In this document: positions 18,251 to 43,118 of the stretch, one piece after another | How positions within the stretch are numbered: the first letter of the stretch is position 1 | How the letters are laid out: the number at the start of each line of letters is the position of its first letter | Origin: a virus | IMG/VR virus record: IMGVR_UViG_3300035670_000060 | Location: 32,001-96,000 of that record | Reading direction: 5' to 3' (one strand) | Length of the DNA stretch: 64,000 nucleotides | The notes under the pieces: generated by a model | Databases searched by the model: none | Told to the model about the DNA's origin: nothing | The model's input: only the letters and a program-made list of their open reading frames with translations | Made by a program: the position numbers and the translations under genes

Positions 18251-18258
18251 TATTTATA
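18251..18258 (-). promoter_or_regulatory. T4-type late promoter TATAAATA
   Basis: Exact consensus in the intergenic region upstream of gp18. Confidence 0.8.
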
Positions 18259-21905: not shown

Positions 21906-22649
21906 TTATCCAATCATATCAGATACAGGTAATGAATATGAAGATATCATCTCAGCTTCTAATGCTGTTATTTCATCTGTTGCTTCATCCCAAATTTTTT
22001 GACCGTTGAATGTCAGACCACCCGGCATTTGGAGACCTTCAAACTTTTTTAAATTTTCGCCCCACTGTTTTTTAATTTGTGCTGTTGCATATCGTTGAAG
22101 CCATCTGTCACCCCATACATCTGAGTATGTATCAGGATCCACTTTCTGGTATGCTTCAATAATAATATATTCGCCAGTCACAACTTTTGCTGACCAATCC
22201 ATATCGATATAAAGTCTGTTTACATGGCGATTATATCTGAGACTTTGGCGCCCAACAAAAAGTTCTTCAGCAAGCGCAACATTCTGAAGTGCCATGTAGT
22301 ATGGTGCGAAAGGTCCATAATTGAATGCAAACAGATCGTTCAGTGCGATTTGATATCGAATGTTGAACAGATTGTTTGAAGAATAAGAGTCACCAATATC
22401 AAATATATTAATGATACCAATGACTGCTTCTGGAATGGTTATGTATTTGTTTGTCTTGTCTTCAGCAGTGACTGGATGTGCTAAATAAACTTTCTGTGTA
22501 CCATCAAAATGATAATCGTGATAATACGCTAATGCTTCGTCAATTCTATCTTCAACTTGTTCATCCGCTACATTAATTTCAAGTACAGGTTTCCCTAACT
22601 TACGTAAGCAATATTCTTTAAATTCATCTCTACTGGTAGGTTTAGCCAT
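21906..22649 (-). CDS. gp13: Neck protein
   Basis: YCLRKLGKPVLEINV, HFDG, KKQWGENLKKFEGLQMPGG. Confidence 0.93.
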   Translation of the reverse strand: MAKPTSRDEFKEYCLRKLGKPVLEINVADEQVEDRIDEALAYYHDYHFDGTQKVYLAHPVTAEDKTNKYITIPEAVIGIINIFDIGDSYSSNNLFNIRYQIALNDLFAFNYGPFAPYYMALQNVALAEELFVGRQSLRYNRHVNRLYIDMDWSAKVVTGEYIIIEAYQKVDPDTYSDVWGDRWLQRYATAQIKKQWGENLKKFEGLQMPGGLTFNGQKIWDEATDEITALEAEMISSYSLPVSDMIG

Positions 22650-22675: not shown

Positions 22676-22683
22676 TATTTATA
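22676..22683 (-). promoter_or_regulatory. T4-type late promoter TATAAATA
   Basis: Exact consensus upstream of gp13. Confidence 0.8.
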
Positions 22684-22685: not shown

Positions 22686-22898
22686 TTAACAGATTAGTGC
22701 TTTGCCATCAATCAATAGTAAATTGCCTTTGCATGCCAGATTCCATTTTTTTACACCATGCTCGTAAGTACATTCGTCATACACGGGCACGTTGATTTCT
22801 AAACTTTTAGCTAAGACTTCTTCGCCATTTTCAAAAATTCTCCAGAAAAAATCAGTGTCGCCGTGCTGTGTATTAAATCGAATATGGTATTGCTTCAT
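22686..22898 (-). CDS. Hypothetical protein
   Basis: 70 aa; start overlaps the stop of the upstream kinase gene (ATGA). Confidence 0.6.
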   Translation of the reverse strand: MKQYHIRFNTQHGDTDFFWRIFENGEEVLAKSLEINVPVYDECTYEHGVKKWNLACKGNLLLIDGKALIC

Positions 22899-23731
22899 TC
22901 AATTCCCATTTCTTTTCGAATTTTGGTTGCTGAAATAGCATGTATCGTATCATCGAAAACTTCTTGTTCAATCTTGTAGCCGACATCTCTACCGTATGTG
23001 ATGTTTACAATGTTTGGAACAATCAAAATTTCATACTGACCTTGATAGAGTGGATCTAAGTCTCTTCGAATATAGTTTTTAACTTCTTCAATTGCAAATG
23101 GATTACTTCCATTCCAACCCTGACAATCACGAATCATGATACATACTTGACCAGTTTTTGCTAACGCTCTTTCAAATAACGCACGATGACCTTTGTGCCA
23201 TGGTTGCCAACGACCTAACATCTGCACAGTTTCTTTGCGCCAATCAAAAGTTGGTCTTCTTTTACGACTTAAAATTGCTTCACCTACATACTGCACCCAC
23301 TTTTCAGCATTCTTTTCGTTGATTCTAAAATCATAGATTTCTGGTGGCACAAATGCTTTGTTCGTATCTTCATAACGACCAGCATCAATCGTATCCATCC
23401 AGATTGTCCAGTCTGCTTTAAAGTTGTGACGCATTTCAGCAAGTGGTGCTACAAAATCACAAATGACATATTCGCCAGTGCATCGCATTGCAAATTCTGC
23501 CATCCTCAACGACTGCCGAATGCGACCTTCTTTTGAAAAGTCCCAATCATTGAATCGCTTTCGAATGTCATCAGCATTGAACCAATCAACTCGTGCGTTC
23601 ATTCGAGGATATGGAGCGTCACTAAGTGTGTTTAAAGGACGCTCTCCGTGAATCTCAAGATAAGTCTTTAATCGTTCTGCAAAATATGTTTTACCTGAGC
23701 CAGGCAAACCCATAATCAATATTTTTTCCAT
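22895..23731 (-). CDS. Adenylylsulfate (APS) kinase-like domain fused to an HxGH nucleotidyltransferase domain
   Basis: P-loop GLPGSGKT and ADDIRKRFNDWDFSKEGRIRQ (CysC-like); C-terminal GRWQPWHKGH and ISATKIR. Start moved to ATG 23731, which has a GGAG RBS. Confidence 0.75.
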   Translation of the reverse strand: MEKILIMGLPGSGKTYFAERLKTYLEIHGERPLNTLSDAPYPRMNARVDWFNADDIRKRFNDWDFSKEGRIRQSLRMAEFAMRCTGEYVICDFVAPLAEMRHNFKADWTIWMDTIDAGRYEDTNKAFVPPEIYDFRINEKNAEKWVQYVGEAILSRKRRPTFDWRKETVQMLGRWQPWHKGHRALFERALAKTGQVCIMIRDCQGWNGSNPFAIEEVKNYIRRDLDPLYQGQYEILIVPNIVNITYGRDVGYKIEQEVFDDTIHAISATKIRKEMGIE

Positions 23732-23748
23732 TATATAAAACTCCAAAA

Positions 23749-23994
23749 TTATTGAGCGATTGCTGCACTTCCCTGAGTGATTGCGTTATGCAAATCAGAA
23801 ATGTCTTCGCCAGATCCGGACACATCTGGATTTCCAACTACTAGTTTAAGATGCTCAACATTTCGATCAATGTTTCCACGAAGTTCGTCAGAAAGTGTTG
23901 CGCCTGCTGCAATCTTTGCTAAAGAATCTTCAATGACCCAAACGCTATCTCTTGCTGCTCGAATTGTATATAGAACTTCTGGTGTTGCTGGCAT
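23749..23994 (-). CDS. Small helical hypothetical protein (possible fibre-associated chaperone)
   Basis: 81 aa, GGAGG RBS, IDRNVEHL motif. Confidence 0.55.
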   Translation of the reverse strand: MPATPEVLYTIRAARDSVWVIEDSLAKIAAGATLSDELRGNIDRNVEHLKLVVGNPDVSGSGEDISDLHNAITQGSAAIAQ

Positions 23995-23995
23995 A

Positions 23996-24946
23996 TTAGC
24001 CTCCTATGAGTTTAGTATCTTCGGTTTCTGTTGGTGCATCCGATTCGGATGTTGGTTCTTCAAAATTTGCGTCAATCTCTTGTAGATTTCTCCAAAATGC
24101 TGTATTTTCACATCGCTTTAAAATTTCTTCTGAAAGAACTTCTTTAGGATCGACTGACGCTCTATTTATTGTACTACGAACTTCATGCATGTCTGCAAGC
24201 CCATAAACTTCAGCATCTTTTTCTTTATGTATGTTTTCAATTTTGCTAAAGTCATGTGCGAAATATTCTTCACCAAGAAATTCATAAATCTTTCGCATTG
24301 TATCATCTGGATTCTCAAGCAAATCGTTATATTCAATGAAGTGAAGATTTTTCTGTCTACCTTCCATTAGTGCTTGTTGAATGCCAAAATAGCTTTGGCC
24401 AAGAATTCCATTTGGACTAGCTAAGAACGTACATCGATTATCATCGTTTAAAGGCGTGTTTGTTTTGATAAGCATTTCATCAATGAAATTAATCTTACCT
24501 TCACCGCCGTATGGATTTCTGCGTTGCATTGTAATAAATGATGTAAGAATTTCTTCAATGTCACGAACTGGGCATAAAACTTTTGGTTCAATTCCAAAAT
24601 ATCCAGGAATGTAATGTAGTCGATTCACCCATGACCGATTCTTGTCAATGATGACAGGCTTATCTACGTCAGAATAATAATTATCCATGACACTAGAAAT
24701 AATTTTTGCAGCTTGTGGTAACTTAGGAAAAGCCATAAAAAGTTCATCGTTTGAAAAAGAATTTTCAAGCGTGAGCATTGTAGGTACCACAGGAGAACTT
24801 GGACCAGAATAGACTCTTGGATTTTGATTTAGAATCGATGATAGAAGTGTACTTCCTGATCTTGGAAGCCCAGACATAAAGTAGTATGTCTTCATTGACG
24901 CTCTCATCATTTCTTCTCTTATAATTTCTTTAATCATTTCTTTCAT
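23996..24946 (-). CDS. PAPS-dependent sulfotransferase
   Basis: 5'-PSB loop SGLPRSGSTLLSSILNQNP; IIDKNRSW; VRDIEEILTS; YNDLLENP. Confidence 0.85.
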   Translation of the reverse strand: MKEMIKEIIREEMMRASMKTYYFMSGLPRSGSTLLSSILNQNPRVYSGPSSPVVPTMLTLENSFSNDELFMAFPKLPQAAKIISSVMDNYYSDVDKPVIIDKNRSWVNRLHYIPGYFGIEPKVLCPVRDIEEILTSFITMQRRNPYGGEGKINFIDEMLIKTNTPLNDDNRCTFLASPNGILGQSYFGIQQALMEGRQKNLHFIEYNDLLENPDDTMRKIYEFLGEEYFAHDFSKIENIHKEKDAEVYGLADMHEVRSTINRASVDPKEVLSEEILKRCENTAFWRNLQEIDANFEEPTSESDAPTETEDTKLIGG

Positions 24947-24957
24947 TGTTCATCACC

Positions 24958-25860
24958 TCATTGTTGATTGTTTACAGATTCTATAATTTTATTTATATCA
25001 AATAATTTAACGTCATCTGTATAAGGATATTCAATTTCATTTCCGTTGAAGTCAAAGTCAAATAAGTAACTGCCAGGAAGTTTGAAGTTATATGGCACAT
25101 CGGTACAAATATTATCATGCATATCATAACCAAAAACTTTAGGGCTTGTACCATTCCATAAAACAGTGGATTTCTTTCTAAGTGCTGCTGCTGCATGTTG
25201 CAACGAAGAGTCTATAAGAATTCTCTTTTTGCTATGTAAAAGAATACTAAAAAATTCCATTAGACTGAGTGCTTGTTGCTGCGTAGCAAAAACATGTTCA
25301 GCGCCTTCAAGTTTTGGTGAGTTCATCTTGGTAACTTGGTAAATATGATAGTCTTTTTTGTAATAGTCTATCAATTCTTGTGCTAATTCTGGCGGCATGT
25401 CTCTTGTCCATGAATAAGGCTTAGCATCTGTTGTCATTGGACCGCCACTTGTATGTATAACCATGATAGGCTTTTTTCTCAACCAAAATTTTCTTGAAAG
25501 ATCCCATTGAAGTTTATTAAACTTTACCTCTGGGCGCTCATTGTCGAATTTTAATTGATGCATTTCGCACCAATTTTCAATCAGTCGTTTCCGTTTATGT
25601 ATATGATTTGTCGTATAGTATGGTTCGTGATGAAAAATCAGAGAATCTTTATCTTGAATGTATTCTTGGTAGAAATATTGTGTGCCACCTAACAGAAAAA
25701 CTCTGTCAACAAAAGAAAGATTAATAAAAATATCAGGATATGCACATACGACAATGAGTTTTCTGTCAGGAAAATTGTTTTTAATTGCTTTTGCAACAGC
25801 GGTTGCTGCTACGTGTTTTCCAATACCGCCTTGAAGATGAAAAATACTATATTTCTTCAT
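24958..25860 (-). CDS. GT-B glycosyltransferase, GT9/heptosyltransferase-like
   Basis: GGIGKHVAATAVAKAIKNNFPDRKLIV N-terminus; ILIDSSLQHAAAALRKKSTVLW. Confidence 0.75.
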   Translation of the reverse strand: MKKYSIFHLQGGIGKHVAATAVAKAIKNNFPDRKLIVVCAYPDIFINLSFVDRVFLLGGTQYFYQEYIQDKDSLIFHHEPYYTTNHIHKRKRLIENWCEMHQLKFDNERPEVKFNKLQWDLSRKFWLRKKPIMVIHTSGGPMTTDAKPYSWTRDMPPELAQELIDYYKKDYHIYQVTKMNSPKLEGAEHVFATQQQALSLMEFFSILLHSKKRILIDSSLQHAAAALRKKSTVLWNGTSPKVFGYDMHDNICTDVPYNFKLPGSYLFDFDFNGNEIEYPYTDDVKLFDINKIIESVNNQQ

Positions 25861-25861
25861 A

Positions 25862-26590
25862 TTATAACCTTTCTTTTGTTGCTTTCACGATGTCCCACGT
25901 TCTCGCATTTTTGATATGATGAAAATGATATGCATTACTTGCGTCTAAAGCTAGTCTTTTAGTTATGTCATAATTTTTATGCTCTGAAACAAGCGTTTTT
26001 GATATCTCACCTTTGATCCTATTCGTCTTGAATATGTATATATGTTCGTTGTTCTGCGTCAGATATTCATCACCGAACCAGATTTGATATAGTCTTGGTA
26101 TCACCTTATACGAAGTTCGCTTTATAAACATACATACACCAAATGCATATCCTTGACCACCTATAGGTTGAGTTTTATCATGTTTGAGTTTGAACAATTC
26201 ATCTTCACCTTCATGAACACCAACTGTATAATTATCTGGTGTGTTTTTTAAATGAACGCCTACAACATCAATCTCTTTAAAATCTACTGCTGAGAAATCA
26301 CGAAATACACTCGATTCAACTTCTATGTCATCATTGATAATGGAAAGAACATTCGCTTTTGATCTATAGTAACCTTCATTCCACGAAGGATTTACGTAGT
26401 TGTTTTTACCATAACAAATGATATGCAACTTAGATGAATTCAATTCGTCAACTCTTTTTGGTCGATTTGCTTTGTCATTGTCAATCAAAAAGATATTTCC
26501 AATATACTCGCATTCAATGTAGGTGTCAAGTGCGGATAGAAAATTTTTAGACTTCCACATTGTAGGAATTACAACGTCAATTGTATTCAT
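25862..26590 (-). CDS. GT-A glycosyltransferase (GT2-like)
   Basis: DVVIPTMW, LIDND, YVNPSWNEG, IINDD (DXD-like), IWFGD. Confidence 0.75.
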   Translation of the reverse strand: MNTIDVVIPTMWKSKNFLSALDTYIECEYIGNIFLIDNDKANRPKRVDELNSSKLHIICYGKNNYVNPSWNEGYYRSKANVLSIINDDIEVESSVFRDFSAVDFKEIDVVGVHLKNTPDNYTVGVHEGEDELFKLKHDKTQPIGGQGYAFGVCMFIKRTSYKVIPRLYQIWFGDEYLTQNNEHIYIFKTNRIKGEISKTLVSEHKNYDITKRLALDASNAYHFHHIKNARTWDIVKATKERL

Positions 26591-27249
26591 AAATCTTCTA
26601 TGTTATAATTTTTCATTGTCGATTCAAAATTACCTTTATACATCTTATTGCCTAAATGGTAAACTGTATGATTCGGTTTGATCCAGATTTTGTAACCGAG
26701 TTCTCGAATCTTATTTGAAAGTGTAATATCTTCACCAACAAAAGCTCCGTTTATGTATGTAAATTCACATATGTTTTTTAATTTCTTACTACGAAAATCT
26801 AATTCAACATTAGAGATCCATAAATCTTTAATGACTTTTTTGGAAAGTTTTAGAAAGCCTGTTCCTACACGAGATGCTGTCAGATAACCATCTTTCGGAT
26901 CTCTCTTGACCACACTGTTAAAATAAACGTTATACTGTATATTTGTATCACCTTTATTTACAACTGGTATAGCGATGACATCTTTTGGTGAAGAAAGAAT
27001 TTCAATCAATGCTTTCTCATCCCACATTTCATCATCGTCAATGAATACCATTGCATCATAATTTTCTTTGTATGCTAAATTAAAGAGTTCATTTCTGGCC
27101 ATTGGAAGAATACTTTCATTGGCCAGAAACACTACATTGATTGACAAATCGTGTTTCAATCCTAACTTAATAGATTCACATAAACTATGAACGAAATATG
27201 CGTCTACTTTTTGATCTAAACATGGTGTAGCAATTAATATACGTTTCAT
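26587..27249 (-). CDS. GT-A glycosyltransferase-like protein
   Basis: ILIATP, ARNEL, FIDDD, VGTGFL, GEDITL, HLG. Confidence 0.75.
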   Translation of the reverse strand: MKRILIATPCLDQKVDAYFVHSLCESIKLGLKHDLSINVVFLANESILPMARNELFNLAYKENYDAMVFIDDDEMWDEKALIEILSSPKDVIAIPVVNKGDTNIQYNVYFNSVVKRDPKDGYLTASRVGTGFLKLSKKVIKDLWISNVELDFRSKKLKNICEFTYINGAFVGEDITLSNKIRELGYKIWIKPNHTVYHLGNKMYKGNFESTMKNYNIEDL

Positions 27250-27309
27250 AACATACCTTTTCTTTCATCATTGTTCACACAGCCATTGTATATATTGTCA
27301 CATAAAATG

Positions 27310-30300
27310 TCAAGTAACTCTTTTCTCTAGTGCTTCAAGTCTACTCTTAAGTGCATCTATTTCATTCGACATCTCATTAATTGTATTGACAAGAACTGGT
27401 ATCAAATGATCATTTGTCATTTGAAGTTTTTCCGGCATCTCTTTACTTACGATGACAGGATTGTCACCTTCAGCCTCTAGAATGTTTTGTGCGCTGAAAC
27501 CATATCGTTTTCTGGTATCCGTAATTTCACCAGTGTCTCGATTTTTAAATGAGAATTCAATTGGTGTAATCTTTCGAAGAAAATCTCTACCGTGTGGAAC
27601 AGGTCCGAAGATTGTTTTGTCACGAACATCTGAAACAGTAGTCCAACCAATTTGAATTTGAGCGCAAGTATGTGCATTATTGCCCATGATGATGCGATTT
27701 GATTCAGTTGTGATATTAGCTAGACCAATTGTTCCAACAGCAGCATTGCATCCAAAGAAAAGATTGTTGCTGCCAGTGGTGTTACAGTAACCAGCACATT
27801 GACCAGCAAAGATGTTATTATTGCCAGTGGTGTTAGCAGCACCAGCAGCATTACCAATGAAATTATTGTTAGAGCCAGTGGTGTTATTTAAACCAGCACT
27901 TTGACCAAAGAAATTATTACTACAGCCAGTGGTATTGCCATAACCAGCACTTGAACCAATGAAATTATTAAAACCGCCAGTGGTATTGTAGCGACCAGCA
28001 CTTGCACCAAAGAAATTATTACTAGTGCCAGTGGTGTTGTTTAGACCAGCACTTGCACCAAAGAAATTATTACTAGTGCCAGTGGTGTTACTGCAACCAG
28101 CATTCACACCAATGAAATTATTGTAACTGCCAGTGGTGTTCTTGTAACCAGCACGATTACCAATGAAATTGTTATGTCCGCCAGTTGTGTTATAGTAACC
28201 AGCACGATTACCAAAAAAATTATTTTGGCTGCCAGTGGTATTATAGTAGCCAGTTTGCCTACCAAAGAAATTATTATAATTGCCTGTGGTATTATAGAAA
28301 CCTGCTAATGGACCAAAGAAATTGTTACAATTACCTGTTGTGTTACAGTAACCAGCACATGCACCAAAGAAATTATTAAAAAATCCAGTGGTATTATTGT
28401 TACCAGCCACGTAACCCATAAAATTATTATAAGCGCCTGTGGTGGTATTGCGACCAGCACATAAACCAGCGAAGAAGTTGTAACAGGCATCGTTACAGTA
28501 ACCAGCTGCTAAACCAATAAAAATATTACCAATGCCTGTGACGTTAAAGCGACCTGCATCTTTTCCAAAGAAAGTATTATTGCTACCAGTTGTATTTTTA
28601 CAACCAGCAAGATTACCAATGAAAGTGTTATAACTGCCATTAGTATTACAGAGACCAGCACATTGACCAATGAAAGTATTGCCACTGCCAGTGGTATTGC
28701 CATAACCAGATACAAGACCAAAGAAATTATTATGACATCCAGTGGTGTTGCTGGAACCAGCTTGATTACCAAAGAAATTATTACAACTGCCAGTGGTATT
28801 AGTTATGCCAGCAGCATTACCAAAGAAATTATTATGACAGCCACTGCTATTGCCGCGACCAGCATATCGACCAAAGAAATTATTAAAACAGCCAGTAGTA
28901 TTGTAGCGACCAGCACAACAACCAATGAAATTATTATAACTGCCAGTGGTATTGTAGCGACCAGCACAAAAACCAATAAAATTATTACTAGTGCCAGTGG
29001 TGTTAGAGAAACCAGCACATTGACCAAAGAAATTATTATTACAGCCAGTGGTATTGGAGCGACCAGCACTTGGACCAAAGAAATTATTATTGCTGCCAGT
29101 GGTGTTACAGAAACCAGCCCATCTACCAAAGAAATTATTAAAACAGCCAGTGGTGTTATTGCGACCAGCACATAGACCAAAGAAATTATTATAGCTGCCT
29201 GTTGTGTTAACCAAACCAGCACTATTACCAATGAAATTATTATTGCTACCCGTCGTGTTACAGTAGCCAGCCGACTCACCAAAGAAATTATTATGACTGC
29301 CTGTTGTGTTAAAGCGTCCGGTATAATAACCAAAGAAATTATTATTGCTGCCTGTTGTGTTCAAACAACCAGCACTTCCACCAAAGAAATTATTCTTCCA
29401 GCCTGTTGTGTTACATAAACCAGCACAACGACCAAAGAAATTATTATAGCTGCCTGCTGTGTTAAAGTAACCAGCACTTAGACCAAAGAAATTATTACAG
29501 CCGCCTGTTGTGTTACAGAAACCAGCACTTTGACCAAAGAAATTATTATTACAGCCAGTGGTGTTACTGTAACCAGCAGCGCAACCAAAGAAATTATTGT
29601 GATTGCCAATTGTATTGGAAAAACCAGCACTTTGACCAAAAAAGTTATTCCAAGCACCACTGATATTACACATACCAGCACAAAGACCAGCAAAGAAGTT
29701 ACAACCGCCAATGATATTGTAGCGACCAGCATTTAAACCGATAAAAGTATTATGACAGCCTGTTGTATTACAGAAACCTGCACATCGATTAATAAAGGTA
29801 TTATATTTGCCATTGGTATTAAAACGACCAGCATCACGACCAAGGAAAATATTATCATTACCATCGATATTAGCGTAACCAGCACATTGACCAGCAAAGA
29901 AGTTATAACTGCCAGTGATGTTACAGTAACCAGCAGCGCAACCAAAGAAATTATTATTACATCCAGTGGTATTATTAATACCAGCAAAATGACCAAAGAA
30001 ATTATTAAATCTAGCAGTGGTGGTAGAACGACCTGCTTGATTACCAATGAAAGTATTACCAAATCCAGTGGTATTAGCGTAACCAGCATAGTAACCAATG
30101 AAATTATTAGAACCACCAGTGGTGTTACAGTAACCAGCACATGTACCAGCAAAGAAGTTATGACAGCCAGTGGTATTACTGTAACCAGCAAGATAACCAA
30201 AGAAATTATTCATACTGCCAGTGGTGTTACTGTAACCAGCACATAAACCTGCGAAAAAGTTATGACTACCAGTGGTGTTACATAAACCAGCACATGCACC

Positions 30301-31839
30301 AATAAAAGTATTATGACTGCCAGTGGTGTTAAAGCGACCAGCGCATAAACCTGCGAAAAAGTTATAGCTACCGTAGTTATTGGCTAAACCAGCACTGTTA
30401 CCGAAGAAATTATTGTGACTGCCAGCATTCAAATAACCAGCAAAATGACCAAAGCTATTATTATTACAACCAGTAATGCTAAGAAAACCAGCATAGCGAC
30501 CAAGGTAATTATTATGACTGCCAGTGGTATTGGAGCGACCAGCTTGATTACCAAAAAAGTTATTATAACAACCAGTGGTGTTAAGACGACCAGCAGCTAG
30601 ACCAAAGAAATTATTAAAACTGCCAGTGGTGTTATTGCAACCAGCACTTTGACCAAAGAAATTATTACCAGCGCCAGTGGTGTTACGAAAACCACTATTA
30701 CATCCTAAAAAGTTATTAAAACTGCCAGTGGTGGTGGCAAAACCTGAAGAAAAACCTGCGAAGAAGTTATGACATCCAGTGGTGTTACAGAAACCAGCAC
30801 ATTGACCGAAGAAAATATTACCAGCGCCAGTGGTGTTATTGTAACCAGCATATTGACCAATGAAAATATTAAAACATCCTGTGGTGTTGTAGCGACCAGC
30901 ACAGGAACCAGCAAAGAAGTTGTGACTACCAGTGCTATTGGCATAACCAGTATAACAACCAAAGAAATTATTATGAGATCCTGTGGTGTTATTGAGACCA
31001 GCAGCAAGACCTAAAAAATTATTCCAACTACCTGTAGTGTTATTTCTACCTGAATTATTACCAATGTAATTATTATTACAGCCTGTAGTATTGTTACGAC
31101 CTGTATATTTTCCAATAAAATTATTGTTAGATGCTGTTTCATTATATAATCCAGCACCTTTACCAAAGAAATTATTGTAAGAACCTGTGCTATTATACTT
31201 ACCAGCTTCATGACCAAAGAAATTGTTATAACATCCGCTACTATTACATCGTCCAGCATTTAAACCAAAAATATTATTAAAACATCCTGTAGTGTTAATA
31301 CAACCAGCATTTTGACCTAAGAAAATGTTCCAACTACCAGCTAAGTTGCATCGGCCAGCAGATTCACCTAAAAAGATATTACTGACGCCAGTGGTGTTAC
31401 AAAAACCAGCTCGTGATCCTGCAAAAAAGTTGCTGCTTCCTCCACCAAAATTACATGACATGCCACTTATTATATTGCAATTACCTTTAGTTACAAATGC
31501 ACTTGTAGTTTTTTCTGTATACCATGCACCACCTGATGCAAAAATTCGTGTGCCTTGTTCTCTATACAATATAATAGATGCTCTACCGTCATCGATAGTT
31601 TCAGCACCTTGCGGATCAATAGTTAAATTAAACGCTACGTTATTGAAAATTTTAAATGACATTCCCTCGGAACTTGCTGCTGGAGGTAAATTGATCGTCC
31701 CCGCTGCTGTTCCGTTATAAACAATGATGTCATTATTATCTTCAGGAGATACCGTATATGCACTCGCAGTGATATTTTTGGTAAGTTCTCTATAAGGAAC
31801 TTGACTGTTGAGTGCCGATATCTGATAAGGTCTTGCCAT
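27310..31839 (-). CDS. Giant Cys-rich beta-roll tail fibre with C-terminal peptidase S74 intramolecular chaperone
   Basis: 1509 aa; NTTG repeats; WTTVSDVRDK cleavage motif, YGFSAQ, terminal coiled coil LVNTINEMSNEIDALKSRLEALE. Confidence 0.85.
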   Translation of the reverse strand: MARPYQISALNSQVPYRELTKNITASAYTVSPEDNNDIIVYNGTAAGTINLPPAASSEGMSFKIFNNVAFNLTIDPQGAETIDDGRASIILYREQGTRIFASGGAWYTEKTTSAFVTKGNCNIISGMSCNFGGGSSNFFAGSRAGFCNTTGVSNIFLGESAGRCNLAGSWNIFLGQNAGCINTTGCFNNIFGLNAGRCNSSGCYNNFFGHEAGKYNSTGSYNNFFGKGAGLYNETASNNNFIGKYTGRNNTTGCNNNYIGNNSGRNNTTGSWNNFLGLAAGLNNTTGSHNNFFGCYTGYANSTGSHNFFAGSCAGRYNTTGCFNIFIGQYAGYNNTTGAGNIFFGQCAGFCNTTGCHNFFAGFSSGFATTTGSFNNFLGCNSGFRNTTGAGNNFFGQSAGCNNTTGSFNNFFGLAAGRLNTTGCYNNFFGNQAGRSNTTGSHNNYLGRYAGFLSITGCNNNSFGHFAGYLNAGSHNNFFGNSAGLANNYGSYNFFAGLCAGRFNTTGSHNTFIGACAGLCNTTGSHNFFAGLCAGYSNTTGSMNNFFGYLAGYSNTTGCHNFFAGTCAGYCNTTGGSNNFIGYYAGYANTTGFGNTFIGNQAGRSTTTARFNNFFGHFAGINNTTGCNNNFFGCAAGYCNITGSYNFFAGQCAGYANIDGNDNIFLGRDAGRFNTNGKYNTFINRCAGFCNTTGCHNTFIGLNAGRYNIIGGCNFFAGLCAGMCNISGAWNNFFGQSAGFSNTIGNHNNFFGCAAGYSNTTGCNNNFFGQSAGFCNTTGGCNNFFGLSAGYFNTAGSYNNFFGRCAGLCNTTGWKNNFFGGSAGCLNTTGSNNNFFGYYTGRFNTTGSHNNFFGESAGYCNTTGSNNNFIGNSAGLVNTTGSYNNFFGLCAGRNNTTGCFNNFFGRWAGFCNTTGSNNNFFGPSAGRSNTTGCNNNFFGQCAGFSNTTGTSNNFIGFCAGRYNTTGSYNNFIGCCAGRYNTTGCFNNFFGRYAGRGNSSGCHNNFFGNAAGITNTTGSCNNFFGNQAGSSNTTGCHNNFFGLVSGYGNTTGSGNTFIGQCAGLCNTNGSYNTFIGNLAGCKNTTGSNNTFFGKDAGRFNVTGIGNIFIGLAAGYCNDACYNFFAGLCAGRNTTTGAYNNFMGYVAGNNNTTGFFNNFFGACAGYCNTTGNCNNFFGPLAGFYNTTGNYNNFFGRQTGYYNTTGSQNNFFGNRAGYYNTTGGHNNFIGNRAGYKNTTGSYNNFIGVNAGCSNTTGTSNNFFGASAGLNNTTGTSNNFFGASAGRYNTTGGFNNFIGSSAGYGNTTGCSNNFFGQSAGLNNTTGSNNNFIGNAAGAANTTGNNNIFAGQCAGYCNTTGSNNLFFGCNAAVGTIGLANITTESNRIIMGNNAHTCAQIQIGWTTVSDVRDKTIFGPVPHGRDFLRKITPIEFSFKNRDTGEITDTRKRYGFSAQNILEAEGDNPVIVSKEMPEKLQMTNDHLIPVLVNTINEMSNEIDALKSRLEALEKRVT
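27740..31450 (-). repeat. ~42-bp degenerate coding tandem repeat (approx. 85-90 units)
   Basis: Same repeat family as 1200-4790. Confidence 0.9.
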
Positions 31840-31841: not shown

Positions 31842-32324
31842 TTAGTAGTCTCCGCCTATTGCGTCTATTGCGATTGCGATATTTGTGCCGCCAGCAGCGA
31901 CAGTAGTTCCCGCATAAATTCTATAAGTTGCAGGTAAATTCAATCCACCTAATGGAAGTAACAATGGGTATGTAGTCATTCCTGCTGTCGCTAAAGCTGC
32001 AACTGCTGTTGCAGGAATTGTAACTTCACCAAAAAATATATTGTTTCCTGCTGTCGTATTTGCTGATCCATTATTTATCCAAAATCTTACAACGGTTGCA
32101 CTTGATGTTCCTGATGCTGTTGCTCCGTTAGTAGATGCTAATCGACAAGTGATTTGATCAACTCTCGAACCATTTGCACCAGCAGTATATATAAGTGCCA
32201 TGGCCGTGCCTGTCGCTTGTGTACCGTCAAATGCTCCAGTGTTTGTCATTGCGGTTGATAGGCGAACATTTAAGGCACCTACGTTTGGCGTTTGTGCGAA
32301 GATTGGTGTTGCTGTTACTGGCAT
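31842..32324 (-). CDS. Small beta-rich virion/fibre adaptor protein (hypothetical)
   Basis: 160 aa, 2-nt spacing to both flanking fibre genes. Confidence 0.6.
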   Translation of the reverse strand: MPVTATPIFAQTPNVGALNVRLSTAMTNTGAFDGTQATGTAMALIYTAGANGSRVDQITCRLASTNGATASGTSSATVVRFWINNGSANTTAGNNIFFGEVTIPATAVAALATAGMTTYPLLLPLGGLNLPATYRIYAGTTVAAGGTNIAIAIDAIGGDY

Positions 32325-32326: not shown

Positions 32327-35300
32327 TTAAAATCCTCCAAAATTAGTTGCTAAGTATAAATTGCTTCCCGGTGAAGATCCTGAAGATCCTATGGGAGATC
32401 CATTGACACACATACCTGTGCTGTCCACTCGAATTCGTTCTGTTGATCCTGCTGCAAGAATGATTGTACCCGACAAAGTTGATGTTCCTGATACACTACC
32501 TAAAATAATATTATTATTACCTGTTGTAATTGATGAACCTGCACTTTGACCTATAAAAATATTATTGTTTGCTGTAGTATTGCCAGTGCCCGCACCAGAT
32601 CCAATAAAGGTGTTATAAGATCCAGATGTATTATTCCATCCAGCAATAGATCCCATAAAGATATTATTGTTTCCGATCGTATTTTGAATGCCAGCACTTG
32701 GCCCCATAAAAATATTGTTAACACCTACTGTATTTCTGAAACCTGTTAAATGACCAATAAAAGTGTTATAACTGCCAGTAGTATTGCAGCAACCTGCATT
32801 ACGACCAAAGAAATTATTACTTGCACCTGAAACATTAAAGAAACCAGCACCACAACCAAAGAAATTATTATGACTGCCACTGGTGTTACAGTAACCAGCA
32901 CACAAACCAGCAAAGAAGTTATAACTGCCAGTATTATTATTGTAACCAGCACTGTTACCAATGAAATTATTATGACAGCCAGTGGTATTGGAGCGACCAG
33001 CAGTTAGACCAAAGAAATTATTATGACATCCAGTGGTATTATTTTGACCAGCATACGAACCAAAGAAATTATTACAACTGCCAATGGTATTATTACGACC
33101 TACTAGATAACCAAAGAAATTATTATTAGAGCCGGTAGTACTAAAAAGACCAGCACAAAAACCAAAGAAATTATTACAAGTGCCAGTGGTGTTACTGTAA
33201 CCAGCACATGCACCAATGAAATTATTATTACTGCCAGTGGTGTTACAGAAACCAGCACTTCGACCGAAGAAATTATTATAACTGCCAGTGGTGTTAGAGA
33301 AACCAGCACAGAAACCAAAGAAATTATTCTGACCGCCAGTGGTGTTAGAGCAACCAGCATTTCTACCAAAGAAATTATTAGAACTGCCAGTGGTGTTAAA
33401 GATACCGGCACGATTACCAAAGAAATTATTCTGACCGCCAGTGGTGTTATATGAACCAGCAAAAACACCAAAGAAATTATTATAACTGCCAGTGGTGTTA
33501 GAGAAACCAGCACGATTACCAATGAAATTGTTATAAGCGCCAGTGGTGTTACAGCGACCAGCTAATTGACCAAAGAAATTATTAGAACTGCCAGTGGTGT
33601 TACTGCAACCAGCAAGATTACCAATGAAAACATTATGGCAGCCAGTGGTATTACAGTAACCAGCACAATTACCAGCAAAGAAGTTAAAACAGCCAATGGT
33701 ATTATAGCGACCAGCACTTGAACCAAAGAAATTATTGTGACTGCCAGTGGTGTTACAGTAACCGGCACTTGCACCGGCAAAGAAGTTATTTGTTCCTGTT
33801 GATGCTTGTGCTGGTGCTCCATAACCAGCATTTTCACCTAAAAATATGTTATTACTACCAACGTGTCTGGTTCCAGCAGCCTGTCCTATGACAACATTAC
33901 ATGTTGGACCACCAAGGGCAAAACTGCCTGCTGCATGACCTATATAAACATTTCCCACTCCTGTAGTCATACATTGACCTACAAGAGTGCCCATTAGAAC
34001 ATTATTACTGCATGTGTTTTTTCGACCTGCGTTCCAACCTAAATATACGTTATAAAACGCTTCAGCATTACAATGTCCTGCATAAGCGCCTAAAAATGTG
34101 TTCCCGGAACCACAAGTATTGTATCTACCTGTATTAGTTCCAATAAAAGTATTTAATTTTCCGTATATGCCGTCTGGTTGAATTGTTCTTTCACCAGAAA
34201 ATCTACCTATAAAAATACTATCTGCGCCAGTAGTATTACAATAACCAGCACATTGACCAGCAAAGAAGTTATAACTGCCAGTAGTGTTATTTTGACCGGC
34301 ACTGTTACCAAAGAAATTATTACCTGCGCCAGTGGTATTGAAGCGACCAGCATACATACCAAAGAAATTATTATAACTTCCAGTGGTATTGCAATAACCA
34401 GTGCTTTGACCAATGAAATTATTATGCTTTCCAGTGGTATTGAAGGTACCAGCACATGCACCAAAGAAATTATTGTAGGAACCTCCGTTAATTCTATATC
34501 CTGCAAATGCGCCAAATAAATTATTATGACTGCCGATGTTTAATTGAGTCGAATTGAGACCATAACCAGCACTACAACCAAAGAAATTATTATTAGATCC
34601 TATTGAATTACAAAATCCAGCAAAAGATCCTATGTAATTATTATTGGTACCTGATGTATTAAATCTACCAGCACATTGACCAGCAAAGAAATTGCGTTCA
34701 CCGTGACCTAAACCTAAACATCCTCTTGAATTACAGAAGCCCGCTTCAAGACCAATAAAAGTATTATGACAACCTGTTGTGTTTTTGAAACCAGCACAAC
34801 GACCAGCAAAGAAGTTATGACTGCCAGTAGTGTTATATGCACCAGCTTGAAAACCAAAAAAGCTGTTATGTGCTCCAGTTGTATTACAAAAACCGGTTCC
34901 ACATCCTATGAAAATATTACAACCGCCAGTTGTATTATAATTACCAGCACTTGATCCAGCAAAGAAGTTAAAACTTCCAGTAGTGTTACATGCACCAGCT
35001 GCTGATCCTAAAAAAGTGTTATCTGATCCAGATGTGTTTTTATATCCTGCACTGTCACCTACAAAAATATTTCTTACACCAACTGTATTACAATAACCTG
35101 CGTTACATCCTAAAAAAGTATTCCAGCGACCTGATGTATTGCTAAAAGCAGTACCACAACCAATGAAAATATTATGATTACCAGTGGTGTTACAGATACC
35201 AGCACATTGACCCGCAAAGAAGTTATCCGTTCCAGTGCCGCCAGTTCCGCTCAAACAGCTTGTAATATTTCTTGTACCACATACGGAAAATATGGAAGCT

Positions 35301-36664: not shown

Positions 36665-36909
36665 TATTCTTTACTCTTTGTTATTGTTAGCAACAATTCC
36701 TTTATTTCTTGCAACTCAGATTTTAATTGTACAACTTCATTTCGAACTAACTCAATTTCGTTTCCTTGTTGAGAATTTCTTCTTCGTTGAATTCTGTATT
36801 TTAATAACGAATCATAGTCATTATTTAATAATGCTTTGGAATTTACATCACGTTCACCAAGACCAGAAACAACTTCTTTCATTTTTAATTTATCATGTTC
36901 ATATCTCAT
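36664..36909 (-). CDS. Small coiled-coil protein
   Basis: 81 aa; RDVNSKALLN...LKSELQEIKELL; overlaps both neighbours. Confidence 0.7.
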   Translation of the reverse strand: MRYEHDKLKMKEVVSGLGERDVNSKALLNNDYDSLLKYRIQRRRNSQQGNEIELVRNEVVQLKSELQEIKELLLTITKSKE

Positions 36910-42900: not shown

Positions 42901-43118
42901 TTTTGTTCACAGCCATCTAAAATATAACCCGGCTTGAAAAAATAATTTGCAAATCTTTCAATTTGTTTTTGCTGAAGTGATTGTGCTTGAGTTAATTCTC
43001 TGGCCTGAACAGCACGTCCAGGCACAAAGAGAACCCTTGCAAATTTTTTATCTTCATCAAAATCATCATAATACGGACTGTTGTTTAAATCCAGTCCGCC
43101 AGGATTCGTATTAGCCAT
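36906..43118 (-). CDS. Large baseplate/structural protein, DUF4815 (VrlC-like)
   Basis: SPYYDDFD...RVLFVPGRAVQARELTQ, APGADRLKI, RTFEESGNY, DPVAQSFYV, PRIRNLRAIALA. Confidence 0.85.
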   Translation of the reverse strand: MANTNPGGLDLNNSPYYDDFDEDKKFARVLFVPGRAVQARELTQAQSLQQKQIERFANYFFKPGYILDGCEQNLDYSVSYVKLQQEYDETEANVTNFLHEEIISANTGVKAYVGIVSDLENNDPKTLFINYTSSGAYILSVNAVSTLLTIGNTITFSTGNTAVIRAFYTDPITENSYIHVGDAVGNLTATTANTILNNGSSNTVDVTLVTDKRTSIEFENNELIFTSNATSRFYALTATSDATRYVENPGTENERIFNRGSKVNIGDGIVYISDHFIKNSRQTLILDKYSNEPSYKIGLVPEKSFVDYLDDTSLLDNAAGTPNFQAPGADRLKIDTVLTKVPFGTSTDENEFISLLEVENGVVKKRKDVGLESKLGQVVAKRTFEESGNYTLSDPKLNIREHLLLNNNGGRYESVDGGNTNLLLVEVDPFTSYVSGFRNEFIIKQEVTLEKGLATQYVEQVRTQINSGNYVEVNEVMGDWDIMEATSVDLYNAPQQTITLGQNTASVLSGTKIGTARVKGIDYVSGNPGQNTASYYLYLTDVIVNSGNTFSQVRSLYSDSTPNRIADIVLDSNGNAVLQEQSFGKLIFNLPYSAIKTLRDEQGQLETGFRFRKVYNVNFSSGQAVISSTDSSETFVGTGALSSAQKDEYYFVVITNGGANVQTSTIATGTILIGANTISGVSVDPRTRFNVGEIIQINGENKTIASLPNANHIILTSTHSTGAAGSNITKILPTGSIIDLSGYGGSGTTRSVNVTAPDSVTIDIQEAHATTFSAKVFTTMDRSNAKEMRKILNYQANTNINPNTHSTLFTGPYSLGRADVYQLHAIYQSNDTTFVTAANTNTSFNTIVTSNYIFDNGQRDNSYEHATITPRVGYKPTGRLHVVYDHFTHDVTQGVGYLSVDSYPINDSVISNTTITTSNIPVYISPKTSIVYDLRNCIDFRPIKTANTSLNPVDTGVYQIPPGGLHTPLAGSDFDADLIFYKGRIAKLYINSRGELGFNNGSPGYPIQQTPPPLPDTMEIAEIFVPPYPSKPIGVPVKLLKNKRYTMADVGKIDSRVNKLEYYSSLNLLERQASEKIVIDDTGIDRFKNGVLVDPFTGSAVADVKSSNYHAAIERTDRYATAYSINSNQTKFVYNSTLSSGLTLLPGRKLILNYTTENFITQPYASTFINLAQELTFTWVGDMDIFPPSDTWLSTTRNPEQDLVIDTSADADNWRALANAWNTEIAPQNAYWIGQPAQVTSSTTRENVNLGTTNQSWVWGGGGWWNFTQTTTTGVDAVTRQTTTNRSSEFINTADVRVGQATSQTVDRVVDVSVSQVMRSRDFIFYAAGVKAGTKMYAFFNEELVTQHCKQIRLLGSTTIQQLADLCDNDGLLPSSALGVYYTIVSDGSLIVSEQNDIYGIFRVPANSFYVGTREFKISDSPTNRLSDTTTYARTSIQASGLTQVKSSITYNTRPSTISFGNRTATGKTRTDSVTTVETARQRESTTTTTVITNQVYDPVAQSFYVDEITYPDGVFVTSIDLYFKKKSSNPNLKVSVEIREMDNGLPTRKTIGGEIVRKPSSGITVNATAQTPTTFTFLNPIFLLPGNEYCFVAKPEGNSTDFEIFTAELGQLDITNANLNTRIDKNNALIGGVLFTSSNDSTWTPRQNLDIKFNMKIAVFSTTTSALATFENIGVGTNFTYSTVQTNMEDLVPSQTSINYEIRTATPSFTLDNYIPIKNLERIKLPAQKQVSNTINETTYSIKSLSLKATMSTRSRYISPYIDLTRGNAIYEDFEINNLTSNTSISGTVTYTSGSNTVIGTGTNFIGEIQGGQYVKFGDNYRIAGDVVNATHMTIVGTFNENNAASQTISIENEENPEGPYISDSRYISRRVALNDGFEATDLVVYVDVNRPSGTDIKVYYKILNENDADSFDSKLYQEMDLVTTKTTSQNEALYSEERYVVPTTIKIGGSRLLNGSVLISTSNNIVEGTSTRFTEDIRIGDTVAVGTARVQRVVTNVVNNTYMTVESAFTTTANTQDIFKVLNNEVQYETPDGRVFEGFKYYAVKVVFLSNNKAYAPRIRNLRAIALA

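Follow-up and report, generated by a model that had tools for sequence, protein, structure and literature searches.

A candidate phage-encoded cassette for glycosylation and sulfation beside the giant fibre genes of an uncultured marine T4-like phage

TibC and Aah are bacterial autotransporter heptosyltransferases (BAHTs) that occur with the adhesins TibA and AIDA-I, respectively (PMC4358343; PDB 4rap/4rb4). They are soluble GT9-fold enzymes, each encoded beside a long, Ser/Thr-rich β-solenoid repeat protein that is modified in the cytoplasm. Among viruses, actinobacteriophages are reported to glycosylate their virions with glycosyltransferases from the structural operon (cited in PMC11256854). 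There, as in STIV (A197) and the chloroviruses, the virus encodes soluble glycosyltransferases in the midst of its structural genes, and the targets are capsid or tail-tube proteins. Here we analyze a locus of an uncultured marine T4-like phage that shares features with both groups. Its GT9-fold enzyme, GTB300, is likewise soluble and encoded beside a Ser/Thr-rich β-solenoid repeat protein that would be modified in the cytoplasm, but it is a phage protein of 300 aa that has neither of the defining features of BAHTs, an N-terminal β-barrel and a four-Cys iron finger, and, unlike TibC and Aah, is paired with a sulfotransferase. The viral systems are not known to include a sulfotransferase, a donor-supply gene, or a GT9-fold enzyme, whereas the cassette has a sulfotransferase, a candidate donor-supply gene, and a GT9-fold enzyme. 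We found no publication on such a cassette in the literature.

The window, that is, the whole stretch of DNA analyzed, comprises 64,000 nucleotides (positions 32,001 to 96,000 of the 113.6 kb IMG/VR record IMGVR_UViG_3300035670_000060). In it, seven genes separate the fibre gene FIB1509 from the neck gene gp13, and the order of transcription is FIB1445, p160, FIB1509, GTA220, GTA242, GTB300, SULT, p81, KIN, p70, gp13, gp14, and gp15, with all cassette, fibre, and neck genes on the − strand. Intergenic spacing inside the cassette is −4 to 17 nt, and the wider gaps are found after FIB1509 (60 nt) and before gp13 (36 nt). The downstream anchor is a gp13-like neck protein (21906..22649, − strand; phrog_211, E 1.8e-42), followed by gp14 (PF11649 T4_neck-protein, E 1e-29) and gp15 (PF16724, E 5.5e-71). 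The original prediction was of five co-oriented, tightly packed enzyme genes placed after an S74-type fibre and before gp13, inside the late structural block, and the gene map confirmed both the packing and the position; the range given for them, 22686-31839, does contain the five enzymes but also takes in the fibre and the small conserved ORFs p81 and p70. The predicted families held as well: the sulfotransferase through Pfam, the APS-kinase fusion through strong profile and fold matches, the GT9/heptosyltransferase-like GT-B enzyme through its fold, and the two GT-A glycosyltransferases through profile or orthologue matches. None of the seven cassette proteins has a hydrophobic segment (maximum KD19 < 1.4), which points to action in the same compartment as virion protein folding, the cytoplasm.

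Two giant fibres lie upstream of the enzymes and are candidate substrates. FIB1445 (32327..36664, − strand) is a repeat fibre picked out by its composition and 25 NTTG motifs, with matches to PHROG virion structural protein and tail spike families (E 6e-41 to 5e-39). FIB1509 (27310..31839, − strand) ends in a Peptidase_S74 intramolecular chaperone domain (PF13884, E 3.2e-5) and also matches virion structural protein and tail spike PHROGs (E 4e-105 and 4e-67, the former being phrog_23837 at 3.7e-105). Its repeat unit of ~17 residues, NTTG..NNFFG..AG, carries 50 NTTG motifs, and the protein has 77 N-x-S/T sites, 17.6% Asn, 4.7% Cys, and 4.3% Tyr; Asp and Glu are scarce in the fibres (1.2% and 1.4%). 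The small ORF between both fibres, p160 (31842..32324, − strand), had no Pfam or PHROG match and no homologue among 80 related loci.

The assignment of GTB300 (24958..25860, − strand) as a minimal GT9-fold, heptosyltransferase-like GT-B enzyme comes from its fold, as the Pfam GT9 match fell below threshold (E 0.026) and no other Pfam match rose above it. When its AF2 model (pLDDT 78) was searched with Foldseek, the top matches were exclusively GT9 enzymes (3tov, E 2.8e-10; WaaC, 6.6e-9; TibC, 3.8e-8 with TM 0.62; WaaF, 1.3e-7), while non-GT9 GT-B families scored above 1e-4; in the PDB, its family profile (A1) found WaaF and WaaC at ~0.01 over the nucleotide-sugar motif. By homology searches the family looks phage-restricted: it turned up in at least 274 viral loci, while 185,579 cellular species genomes yielded one weak match (25% identity), and this near-absence from cells speaks against an LPS gene borrowed from a host. 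No heptose-nucleotide pathway is encoded in the record. GTB300 would place a sugar, probably heptose taken from host ADP-heptose, on Ser/Thr of the repeat fibres during folding, in parallel with the action of TibC and Aah on β-helical adhesins, and the two GT-A enzymes would then lengthen it. Of these, GTA220 (26587..27249, − strand; Anp1/A197-like) had no match in a Pfam search, but the best PDB match of its profile (A2), and its closest solved relative, is A197, the GT-A enzyme of the archaeal virus STIV (E 2.4e-4), followed by Mnn9 and β4Gal-T1. D71 and D73 are conserved in a DxD-like arrangement, the closest ESM Atlas clusters are viral Anp1/GT2, and phrog_1574 matches at E 1.9e-15. GTA242 (25862..26590, − strand) had no Pfam match itself; its orthologue in locus L016 (429 aa, 40% identity) matches GT2 (35.3 bits against a cut-off of 23.3, E 1.4e-8) and also bears Methyltransf_24, an extra C-terminal methyltransferase domain being present in GTA242 orthologues and absent from GTA242. 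Its profile (A3) matched a GT2-like glycosyltransferase in the PDB (E 0.01), and its closest Atlas clusters are viral GT2 (0.99).

To follow the cassette across viruses, we seeded a co-occurrence analysis on GTB300 alone and obtained 51 dereplicated viral groups. In 47 of them SULT directly adjoined the GT9-like gene, as it did in 35 of the 36 whose flanks reached 4 kb or more. An ORF of at least 480 aa lay within four genes of GTB300 in 35/51 groups, whereas an NTTG-type fibre did so in only 17/51, so the specific link to NTTG-repeat fibres that had been envisaged was not borne out; other lineages have RCC1, Kelch, or other giant proteins in its place. The GTB300/SULT pairing spans at least three unrelated genome backbones: a T4-like one, one with ThyX, PhoH, and glutaredoxin genes, and one with "c19" giant proteins. 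The order fibre, GTA220, GTA242, GTB300, SULT, p81, KIN, gp13 recurs in ~10 independent viral contigs, and at the same spot relatives carry additional enzymes for sugar tailoring and protein modification, among them NodU-type carbamoyltransferase, FkbM methyltransferase, 2OG oxygenase, and rSAM-SPASM array genes, a PfkB gene with a cytidylyltransferase (an ADP-heptose-type supply), or a sulfotransferase fused to an Asp/Asn β-hydroxylase. A hypervariable island for host range, in which cargo genes gather, could by itself account for the adjacency.

These observations bear on whether the target belongs to the virion or to the host envelope. It is possible, if unlikely, that the enzymes synthesize or modify a sulfated glycan of the infected host's LPS, capsule, or surface glycoproteins, leading to receptor masking, exclusion of superinfecting phages, or altered lysis debris, and that the fibre region merely tolerates them as cargo. 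The LPS core is the classical target of GT9 enzymes, KIN homologues of SAR11 single cells lie in surface-glycan islands (GT2, NeuB, SIS, epimerase, sulfotransferase), and the sulfotransferase of S-SRM01 adjoins a glycosyltransferase and a sugar epimerase away from the neck genes. Against this reading stand the scarcity of the GTB300 family in cellular genomes, the preservation of its pairing with SULT near giant virion-type proteins on unrelated backbones, and the composition of the cassette, which has no flippase, polymerase, or lipid-carrier genes and no membrane segments. Putative promoters fall on both sides. A sigma70-like promoter matching at 11/12 positions, which is not conserved among relatives, lies in the 60-nt gap before GTA220; it could indicate early expression and counts towards envelope remodelling. 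The T4-late-promoter-like motif TATAAATA has six matches in the window, all on the coding strand, five of which sit 31-56 nt upstream of a start codon. One (24990..24997, − strand) lies within the 3′ end of GTB300, ~50 nt before SULT begins, and another (22676..22683, − strand) lies 33 nt upstream of gp13, at the downstream border of the cassette. The motif before SULT also occurs in several orthologous loci; as it falls within coding sequence, this conservation is no independent evidence. We propose to count the motifs upstream of SULT and gp13 in favour of late expression.

SULT (23996..24946, − strand) is a PAPS-type sulfotransferase of the Sulfotransfer_3 family (Pfam E 8e-15, above cut-off), with a 5′-PSB loop (GLPRSGSTLL) and a 3′-PB motif (VRD...S) that align to TPST. 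The enzymes TPST1/2 and NoeE, in or near the same family, are its best solved or curated matches and share its PAPS-binding fold and motifs, but identity is low and SULT is a cytoplasmic phage enzyme. Its profile (A5) matched TPST1 at 1e-14, the CurM sulfotransferase at 9e-12, TPST2 at 6e-11, and a third tyrosine sulfotransferase at 1e-10 in the PDB, the TPST alignment spanning ~200 residues, and no carbohydrate sulfotransferase at E ≤0.1. The closest solved relatives thus act on tyrosine or a polyketide hydroxyl and not on sugars, and the earlier proposal that sulfate is placed on the glycan is not supported by this ranking, which is biased because few bacterial sugar sulfotransferases have solved structures. 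Accordingly, there may be two separate modifications, with the glycosyltransferases acting on Ser/Thr and SULT sulfating a tyrosine or other side chain of the fibres, as TPST and RaxST do. We regard this as rather doubtful. Besides the profile matches, the Tyr content of FIB1509 and the SULT relative fused to Asp/Asn β-hydroxylase, a protein-modifying enzyme, speak for it. However, known TPST sites are acidic and the fibres are poor in Asp and Glu, SULT does match NoeE, a Nod-factor sugar sulfotransferase, albeit weakly, and the strict GT9-like/SULT pairing and the carbamoyltransferases and FkbM methyltransferases of relatives resemble sugar-tailoring chemistry. Next to SULT, the small acidic conserved ORF p81 (23749..23994, − strand) had no Pfam or PHROG family match; its homologues, in 17/80 and 19/79 related loci, always adjoin SULT or the fibre.

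In the fusion protein KIN (22895..23731, − strand), residues 1-158 form an APS-kinase domain and residues 165-278 a minimal HxGH nucleotidyltransferase; its true start is the ATG at 23731, which gives a protein of 278 aa matching its homologues. Pfam APS_kinase scored 28.7 bits against a cut-off of 21.1, and the family profile (A4) matched at least 17 solved APS kinases (E 4.5e-16 to 1e-12) and, over the C-terminal half, an archaeal NMNAT (2.5e-11). Among the ~40 best Foldseek matches listed for its AF2 model (pLDDT 93), nearly all were APS kinases, with a few gluconate kinases, and a comparison with VIA gave Z 17 for APS kinases and Z 10.6 and 10.4 for PPAT and NMNAT over the C-terminal domain. 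In the alignment K14, R57, H179, H182, and R272 are invariant and D54, F65, and R70 nearly so. KIN shares its kinase-then-adenylyltransferase order and kinase motifs with PAPSS, and PAPSS1 aligns over both domains (249 residues, Z 16.1), though in a different arrangement. Bifunctional PAPS synthases (metazoan PAPSS1/2; Aquifex and fungal Sat-APSK fusions) have ~620 residues against the 278 of KIN, whose second domain has ~110, is NMNAT/PPAT-like rather than close to Sat, and lacks a PF01747 match and a PUA-like domain. KIN is followed by p70 (22686..22898, − strand), which overlaps its stop codon (−4 nt) and has homologues after KIN in 14 loci.

The predicted supply of PAPS by KIN was strengthened by split forms and cellular genomes, and KIN probably makes this sulfate donor. 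In another phage lineage its halves are two adjacent genes beside the GTB/SULT pair, in the order GTB, SULT, kinase (Pfam APS_kinase E 5e-19), nucleotidyltransferase, p70; elsewhere p70 homologues are fused to a DUF2061 membrane domain, and this fusion follows a split pair. Similar pairs are found on SAR11 and SAR86 chromosomes, in SAR86 immediately after a gene for a Sulfotransfer_3 protein (E 1e-43) or for a putative sulfate transporter of the YeiH type. Seven of eight SAR86 genomes have 1-4 sulfotransferases, yet none of the eight has a Sat-type ATP sulfurylase (PF01747), and their two weak CysD matches (PF01507; ORFs of 453-532 aa) are not credible; in the complete SAR86 genome APS_kinase matched nothing but the KIN-like kinase. 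The SAR86 and SAR11 genomes also have genes of the size of canonical CoaD and NadD, so neither CoA nor NAD synthesis requires the mini-nucleotidyltransferase. Sulfotransferases without Sat or a credible CysD make it a candidate new ATP sulfurylase.

The association of KIN with the cassette is not obligate. In ~39 of 55 loci with enough flank, SULT is found up to 6 kb upstream of KIN, but KIN is absent from 4/5 large contigs bearing SULT and a GT9-like gene. Conversely, in five large KIN contigs, including one that is 100% complete, nothing matched Sulfotransfer_3 or the SULT family, and KIN sometimes lies there among queuosine-type genes. Distant orthologues in Xylella and Stenotrophomonas phages (Sano-like, DLP_6) lie among DNA-metabolism genes (MazG, DNA methylase), adjoining a NADAR gene. 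KIN might instead act on nucleotide cofactors, for instance by combining an NMNAT-like adenylyltransferase with a ribose kinase, and perhaps rebuild NAD-type cofactors against NAD-depleting defences, its adjacency to SULT being incidental or requiring the APS-kinase half only. The resemblance of its C-terminal domain to archaeal/NadM NMNAT and PPAT and the canonical APS kinase also present in SAR11 isolates agree with this. We nevertheless find it quite improbable, as the kinase half resembles APS kinases specifically (E 1e-16, Z 17; NRK, shikimate, and adenylate kinases score ≥1e-4, and Z for other kinases is ≤14), and the nucleotidyltransferase reaches 26-52 bits where NMNAT equivalog cut-offs are 127-181 and is ~26 residues shorter across MJ0541 residues 63-110, the segment that holds the nicotinamide pocket. 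The NadD- and CoaD-sized genes, and the sulfotransferase and putative sulfate-transporter neighbours recurring in phages and SAR86, also speak against it. That the genes serve sulfur assimilation or DNA modification is highly implausible: APS kinase is part of assimilatory sulfate reduction and DNA can be a substrate of GT-B enzymes and kinases from phages, but the record has no PAPS reductase/CysD family or Sat gene, in line with the original prediction, the cassette lies in the structural block and not among replication genes, and we know of no DNA-sulfating enzyme.

Decoration of the phage's own fibres therefore appears to us the most likely role of the cassette. On the sugar built by the glycosyltransferases, or possibly on the protein directly, SULT would place sulfate from PAPS provided by KIN, whose NMNAT-derived mini-domain would convert ATP and sulfate to APS and whose N-terminal domain would phosphorylate it. 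If so, KIN would be a miniature PAPS synthase, and we hold with moderate confidence that this phage carries a late-expressed, cytoplasmic cassette that modifies proteins post-translationally and serves its own giant surface proteins.

The window belongs to a 113.6 kb viral contig (completeness 63%, as estimated by CheckV) from a T4-like myophage whose tail sheath is 42–45% identical to those of the Pelagibacter phages Mosig and HTVC008M and of an Ochrobactrum phage. The original prediction placed a co-oriented, tightly packed enzyme cluster between a fibre and the neck gene gp13, and our analysis confirmed this arrangement. The order, all on the (−) strand, is p2070, p81b, the fibre gene FIB1445 (32327-36664), p160 (31842-32324), the second fibre gene FIB1509 (27310-31839), the GT-A glycosyltransferase genes GTA220 (26587-27249) and GTA242 (25862-26590), the GT9-like GT-B gene GTB300 (24958-25860), the sulfotransferase gene SULT (23996-24946), p81 (23749-23994), KIN (22895-23731), which encodes an APS-kinase domain joined to a minimal nucleotidyltransferase (NTase), p70 (22686-22898), gp13 (21906-22649), gp14, and gp15. 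Gaps within the cassette range from −4 to 17 nt, and the cassette is separated by 60 nt from the fibre and by 36 nt from gp13. None of its seven proteins has a hydrophobic segment, and a blastn search of the cassette against cultured phages gave no match. Upstream of the fibres, p2070 (36906-43118, −) codes for a 2070-aa protein of a family of unknown function (phrog_358, E 1.5e-303), and the 81-aa ORF that follows it matches phrog_473, a PHROG virion structural protein family.

In PHROG, both fibres have matches to families with the annotation virion structural protein or tail spike. FIB1509 carries a Peptidase_S74 chaperone domain at its end and consists mostly of NTTG..NNFFG..AG repeats, Asn and Cys making up 17.6% and 4.7% of its residues; the NTTG motif occurs 50 times in this protein and 25 times in FIB1445. 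The role of Asn and Thr in repeats of this type may be structural alone. We considered NTTG as an N-glycosylation sequon and dropped the idea, as the cassette shows no sign of an NGT (GT41) or an oligosaccharyltransferase. Regarding expression signals, the window contains six matches to TATAAATA, each of them on the coding (−) strand (9793-9800, 18251-18258, 22676-22683, 24990-24997, 44492-44499, and 56370-56377), and five of these sites precede a start codon by 31–56 nt, gp13 and SULT being two of the genes concerned. The sites are consistent with predicted T4-type late promoters. The one before SULT sits within the GTB300 coding sequence, where it encodes D-I-N-K, and recurs in relatives; because the site is coding, this conservation is not independent evidence. 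A sigma70-like site (TTGACA, 17 nt, TACAAT; 11 of 12 positions) is found at 27285-27313, within the 60 nt that separate the fibre from GTA220. We set it aside as a promoter, since orthologous loci do not conserve it and such sites are not in excess in the region.

The five enzymes proved to be of the kinds initially claimed, three of them on profile or fold evidence only. GTB300 falls under the Pfam GT9 threshold (PF01075, cut-off 22 bits), scoring 14.3 bits with E 0.026, and matches the NCBIfam RfaC model at E 0.03, while a 13-sequence profile of its family matches WaaF and WaaC at about 0.01, across the nucleotide-sugar motif. When its AF2 model, with a pLDDT of only 78, was used in Foldseek, at least the top 12 matches were GT9 enzymes or GT9-fold proteins (E 2.8e-10 to 1e-7), led by 3tov (2.8e-10), WaaC, TibC (3.8e-8), and WaaF, and other GT-B families appeared at E values above 1e-4. 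As modeled, GTB300 is a two-Rossmann GT-B fold nearest to GT9 structures. Like the genes of the BAHT enzymes TibC and Aah, GTB300 lies beside the gene of a repeat protein, which in the window is a candidate substrate. However, BAHTs are characterized by an N-terminal beta-barrel and a four-cysteine iron finger (PMC4358343), and GTB300 lacks both. The barrel of about 95 residues is absent, the 300-aa model opening with the first Rossmann lobe (strand 4-8, helix 13-29), and of its three cysteines none is invariant in the family alignment. For these reasons, we ruled out that GTB300 is a BAHT. For ADP-heptose as a possible donor, the signs are indirect: PfkB and cytidylyltransferase genes are found at the cassette position in relatives, and none is present in the record of the window itself. 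Outside phages, a GTB300-seeded scan of one genome for each of 185,579 prokaryotic species, which was pattern-based and hence of limited sensitivity, returned a single weak match (25% identity).

GTA220 and GTA242 have no Pfam match. The GTA220 profile matches GT-A structures, including viral STIV A197 (2.4e-4) and Mnn9, an orthologue of GTA242 (40% identical) scores above the Pfam GT2 threshold (PF00535), and the ESM Atlas neighbours of both proteins agree with a GT-A/GT2 assignment. GTA242 orthologues of 425–431 aa carry a C-terminal Methyltransf_24 domain (e.g., L016:6763-8052) that the 242-aa protein of the window does not have. In other relatives, the two GT-A genes are instead separated by an additional gene of 333 aa. 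SULT, in turn, exceeds the Pfam Sulfotransfer_3 threshold (PF13469, 56.1 bits against 27, E 8e-15), and its 5′-PSB loop PRSGST and 3′-PB element VRD...S align to tyrosylprotein sulfotransferase (TPST). By its sequence, it is a member of the PAPS-dependent sulfotransferase family. TPSTs are its best solved relatives (1e-14), and its acceptor site is too weakly conserved to read. According to a 2023 paper, the function of phage sulfotransferases is unclear (PMC10580990).

A set of at least 274 viral loci seeded with GTB300 was dereplicated to 51 groups, which cover at least three different genome backbones. SULT is adjacent to GTB300 in 47 of the 51 groups (35 of the 36 with a flank of at least 4 kb), and an ORF of at least 480 aa lies within four genes of it in 35. 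An NTTG-family fibre is that close in only 17 of the 51 groups, so a link to NTTG-repeat fibres specifically is not supported. Carbamoyltransferase accompanies GTB300 in 14 groups, and KIN, whole or split, in 12. From these counts and the number of backbones, it follows that the invariant unit is the GT9-like enzyme plus the sulfotransferase, beside varied giant proteins and not NTTG fibres specifically. Moreover, among 80 IMG/VR loci seeded with KIN, the whole cassette appears in unchanged order in about ten independent contigs, and a sulfotransferase is encoded on the same strand within 6 kb upstream of KIN in about 39 of the 55 loci with enough flank. Relatives carry alternative genes here: giant proteins with RCC1 and fn3 or Lcl_C and fn3 domains, FkbM and other methyltransferases, a NodU-type carbamoyltransferase, PfkB, a cytidylyltransferase-cupin, an epimerase, and 2OG oxygenases. 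Upstream of KIN, L035:8114-9433 encodes a fusion of a sulfotransferase with an Asp/Asn beta-hydroxylase domain, and loci L057 and L033 contain five tandem rSAM-SPASM genes of about 440 aa each, then a carbamoyltransferase. The varied genes of this hotspot, with the beta-hydroxylase fusion and the rSAM-SPASM arrays, thus suggest a broader protein- or glycan-modifying toolkit.

Our main reading, which we believe and doubt in about equal measure, is that the cassette works in the cytoplasm to decorate giant surface proteins of the phage itself with a sugar that is tailored and probably sulfated, using PAPS from KIN. The GT9-fold transferase and the sulfotransferase would together coat the fibres with the sulfated sugar, and KIN would supply the PAPS for sulfation. 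Two other explanations appear unlikely to us, and to a similar degree. The enzymes could remodel the host envelope, a role that would suit the likeness of GTB300 to WaaC and WaaF and fits poorly with a sulfotransferase and GT9-like pair found repeatedly beside giant proteins. The sulfotransferase could also act directly on tyrosine in place of a sugar, a sub-variant of the main reading; its TPST-like motifs speak for this improbable version, and the adjacency of GTB300 in nearly all groups speaks for a sugar. Obligate coupling of KIN and SULT was rejected, since each is found without the other. As evidence against the decoration reading, a sulfotransferase is absent from five large viral contigs that carry KIN, one of which is complete; conversely, among five large contigs that contain both SULT and a GT9-like gene, four lack KIN, although these are only 36–59% complete.

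KIN (278 aa, starting with the ATG at 23731) scores above the Pfam APS kinase cut-off (PF01583, 28.7 bits against 21.1), and its 48-sequence profile finds no fewer than 17 solved APS kinases, with E values of 4.5e-16 to 1e-12, as compared with 1e-4 or worse for other P-loop kinases. Its AF2 model is confident (pLDDT 93), and the top 40 or so Foldseek matches listed are nearly all APS kinases, with a few gluconate kinase entries. Residues 1-158 align to APS kinases in VIA with a Z of 17.0 and an rmsd of 1.8–2.4 Å, the next kinase family reaching 14.1. Across the 48 sequences, K14 and R57 are invariant, and conservation is 90% or higher at D54, F65, and R70; the conserved positions align to solved APS kinases, and we take them to be the P-loop (K14) and the D-x-x-R, F-S..R, and F/V-x-P substrate motifs of these enzymes. 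With 25.9 bits, KIN is below the NCBIfam cut-off of 127 (PRK05541); it represents a divergent APS-kinase subfamily. Other conserved motifs are GRxQPxHxGH, YGR[DG]VGY, and ISATxIR. As a family profile, the C-terminal half matches archaeal NMNAT at 2.5e-11, and residues 165-278 gave Z values of 10.3–10.6 against PPAT and NMNAT in VIA. KIN is under the curated NMNAT cut-offs (TIGR01527 and PRK01153; 26.5–28.4 bits against 127–181), as is a stand-alone phage NTase (48–52 bits). The KIN NTase profile aligns to NMNAT as two blocks, with about 21 residues where MJ0541 has 47, and the structural alignment spans 110 of about 165 residues (VIA). The Sat-type ATP sulfurylase model PF01747 has no match in KIN or anywhere else in the record, and no ATP-sulfurylase structure emerged as a separate top fold match of the C-terminal domain in VIA, which is an absence only. 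KIN is not a member of the Sat family, and we propose that it may nevertheless work like an ATP sulfurylase.

KIN is very abundant and conserved in metagenomes, where clustering at 90% identity gives at least 8000 clusters, the best 120 of which are 76–97% identical. Among cultured phages, identity to KIN does not exceed 40%. In one phage lineage, its halves are separate genes, in the order GTB, SULT, kinase, NTase, and p70::DUF2061, and the split kinase matches Pfam APS_kinase with 69 bits (E 5.4e-19). The p70 homologues after these split genes are fused to a predicted membrane domain, DUF2061 (Pfam E 2.8e-13; L149:12597-13037, L153:6942-7382, and L159:9119-9580), on which the literature offered nothing informative. 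A cofactor-type role for KIN would agree with its distant orthologues (35–40% identity) in cultured Sano-like siphophages and DLP_6, which are counter-evidence to PAPS supply: their neighbours are a NADAR-domain gene, MazG, DNA methyltransferase, and DNA ligase, and tblastn with SULT found no sulfotransferase at these loci (L084:4565-5741 of Stenotrophomonas phage Bhz60 and L083 of DLP_6). We regard this role as somewhat less probable than the two alternatives above, given the APS-kinase matches and the sulfotransferases upstream of KIN. In a separate group (L014, L031, L040, L042, and L062), KIN lies among FolE-, QueD-, and QueE-like genes, as judged by N-terminal sequence only; nearby are a cytidylyltransferase-cupin, an epimerase, a gene whose weak GT1 match stays under the Pfam threshold, and a gene that looks GT-B-like, likewise from its N-terminal sequence only, and there is no sulfotransferase.

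Finally, we searched cellular genomes for KIN with family alignment A7 as a seed, alignment A4 being too diverse. Homologues with 45–60% identity came from Pelagibacteraceae (the isolates HIMB1495, HIMB1587, and HIMB1709 among others), from SAR86 (CP097973.1, a complete genome, among others), and from SAR116. Most consist of two overlapping genes for an APS-kinase-like protein of 136 aa and a mini-nucleotidyltransferase of 124 aa, as in CP097973.1 (L202:7998-8775) and Pelagibacter sp. HIMB1495 (L227:8001-8782). The SAR11 isolates carry the two genes in a conserved core context with a Rieske oxygenase, a dimethylglycine-dehydrogenase-sized gene, an M24 peptidase/creatinase, a HalD-like oxygenase, and an enoyl-CoA hydratase, and in some SAR11 single-cell genomes the copy is fused and belongs to a surface-glycan island that also encodes GT2, NeuB, SIS, an epimerase, and a sulfotransferase. 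Immediately upstream of the pair, six SAR86 genomes have a Sulfotransfer_3 gene (E 9.7e-44). In CP097973.1 that position (L202:7049-7948) is occupied by a relative of the YeiH family (TIGR00698, E 6.8e-31, below cut-off), whose members are putative sulfate export transporters. Seven of eight SAR86 genomes encode one to four sulfotransferases each; none of the eight has a PF01747 match, and PF01507 (CysD/CysH family) gave only two weak matches in them, in ORFs of 453–532 aa. The KIN-like kinase is the sole APS_kinase match in the two SAR86 genomes searched (G013, which is complete, and G014), and cytidylyltransferase-family genes of CoaD, NadD, HldE, and RibF size are present in these SAR86 genomes. 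With sulfotransferases present, no Sat, and no credible CysD, the mini-nucleotidyltransferase is therefore a candidate for sulfate activation by a missing-gene argument. As further counter-evidence to PAPS supply by KIN, SAR11 isolates also have a canonical APS kinase, and Sat is present in one SAR11 single-cell genome.

Taken as a whole, we tentatively suggest, with more doubt than confidence, that the 278-aa KIN is by itself a complete PAPS synthase, in which an NMNAT-derived domain of about 110 residues represents a third class of ATP sulfurylase, common to a very large clade of aquatic phages and to SAR11 and SAR86 that lack Sat and CysDN yet have sulfotransferases, and that the phages coat their own fibres with sulfated sugar by means of a phage-specific GT9-fold/sulfotransferase pair. 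Our literature search found no description of such a decoration system, nor any paper tying phage sulfotransferases to heptosyltransferase-type enzymes or PAPS supply. The kinase/mini-nucleotidyltransferase pair offers a testable answer to the puzzle of SAR86, which has several PAPS-type sulfotransferases and no recognizable ATP sulfurylase. If the suggestion is true, phages would have their first known sulfated virion, and the ATP sulfurylases a class not recognized before. A chemical coat on the receptor-binding fibres would then be common to many abundant phages of marine and fresh waters, and this coat would bear on host range, on particle stability, and on how fibre sequences are read.
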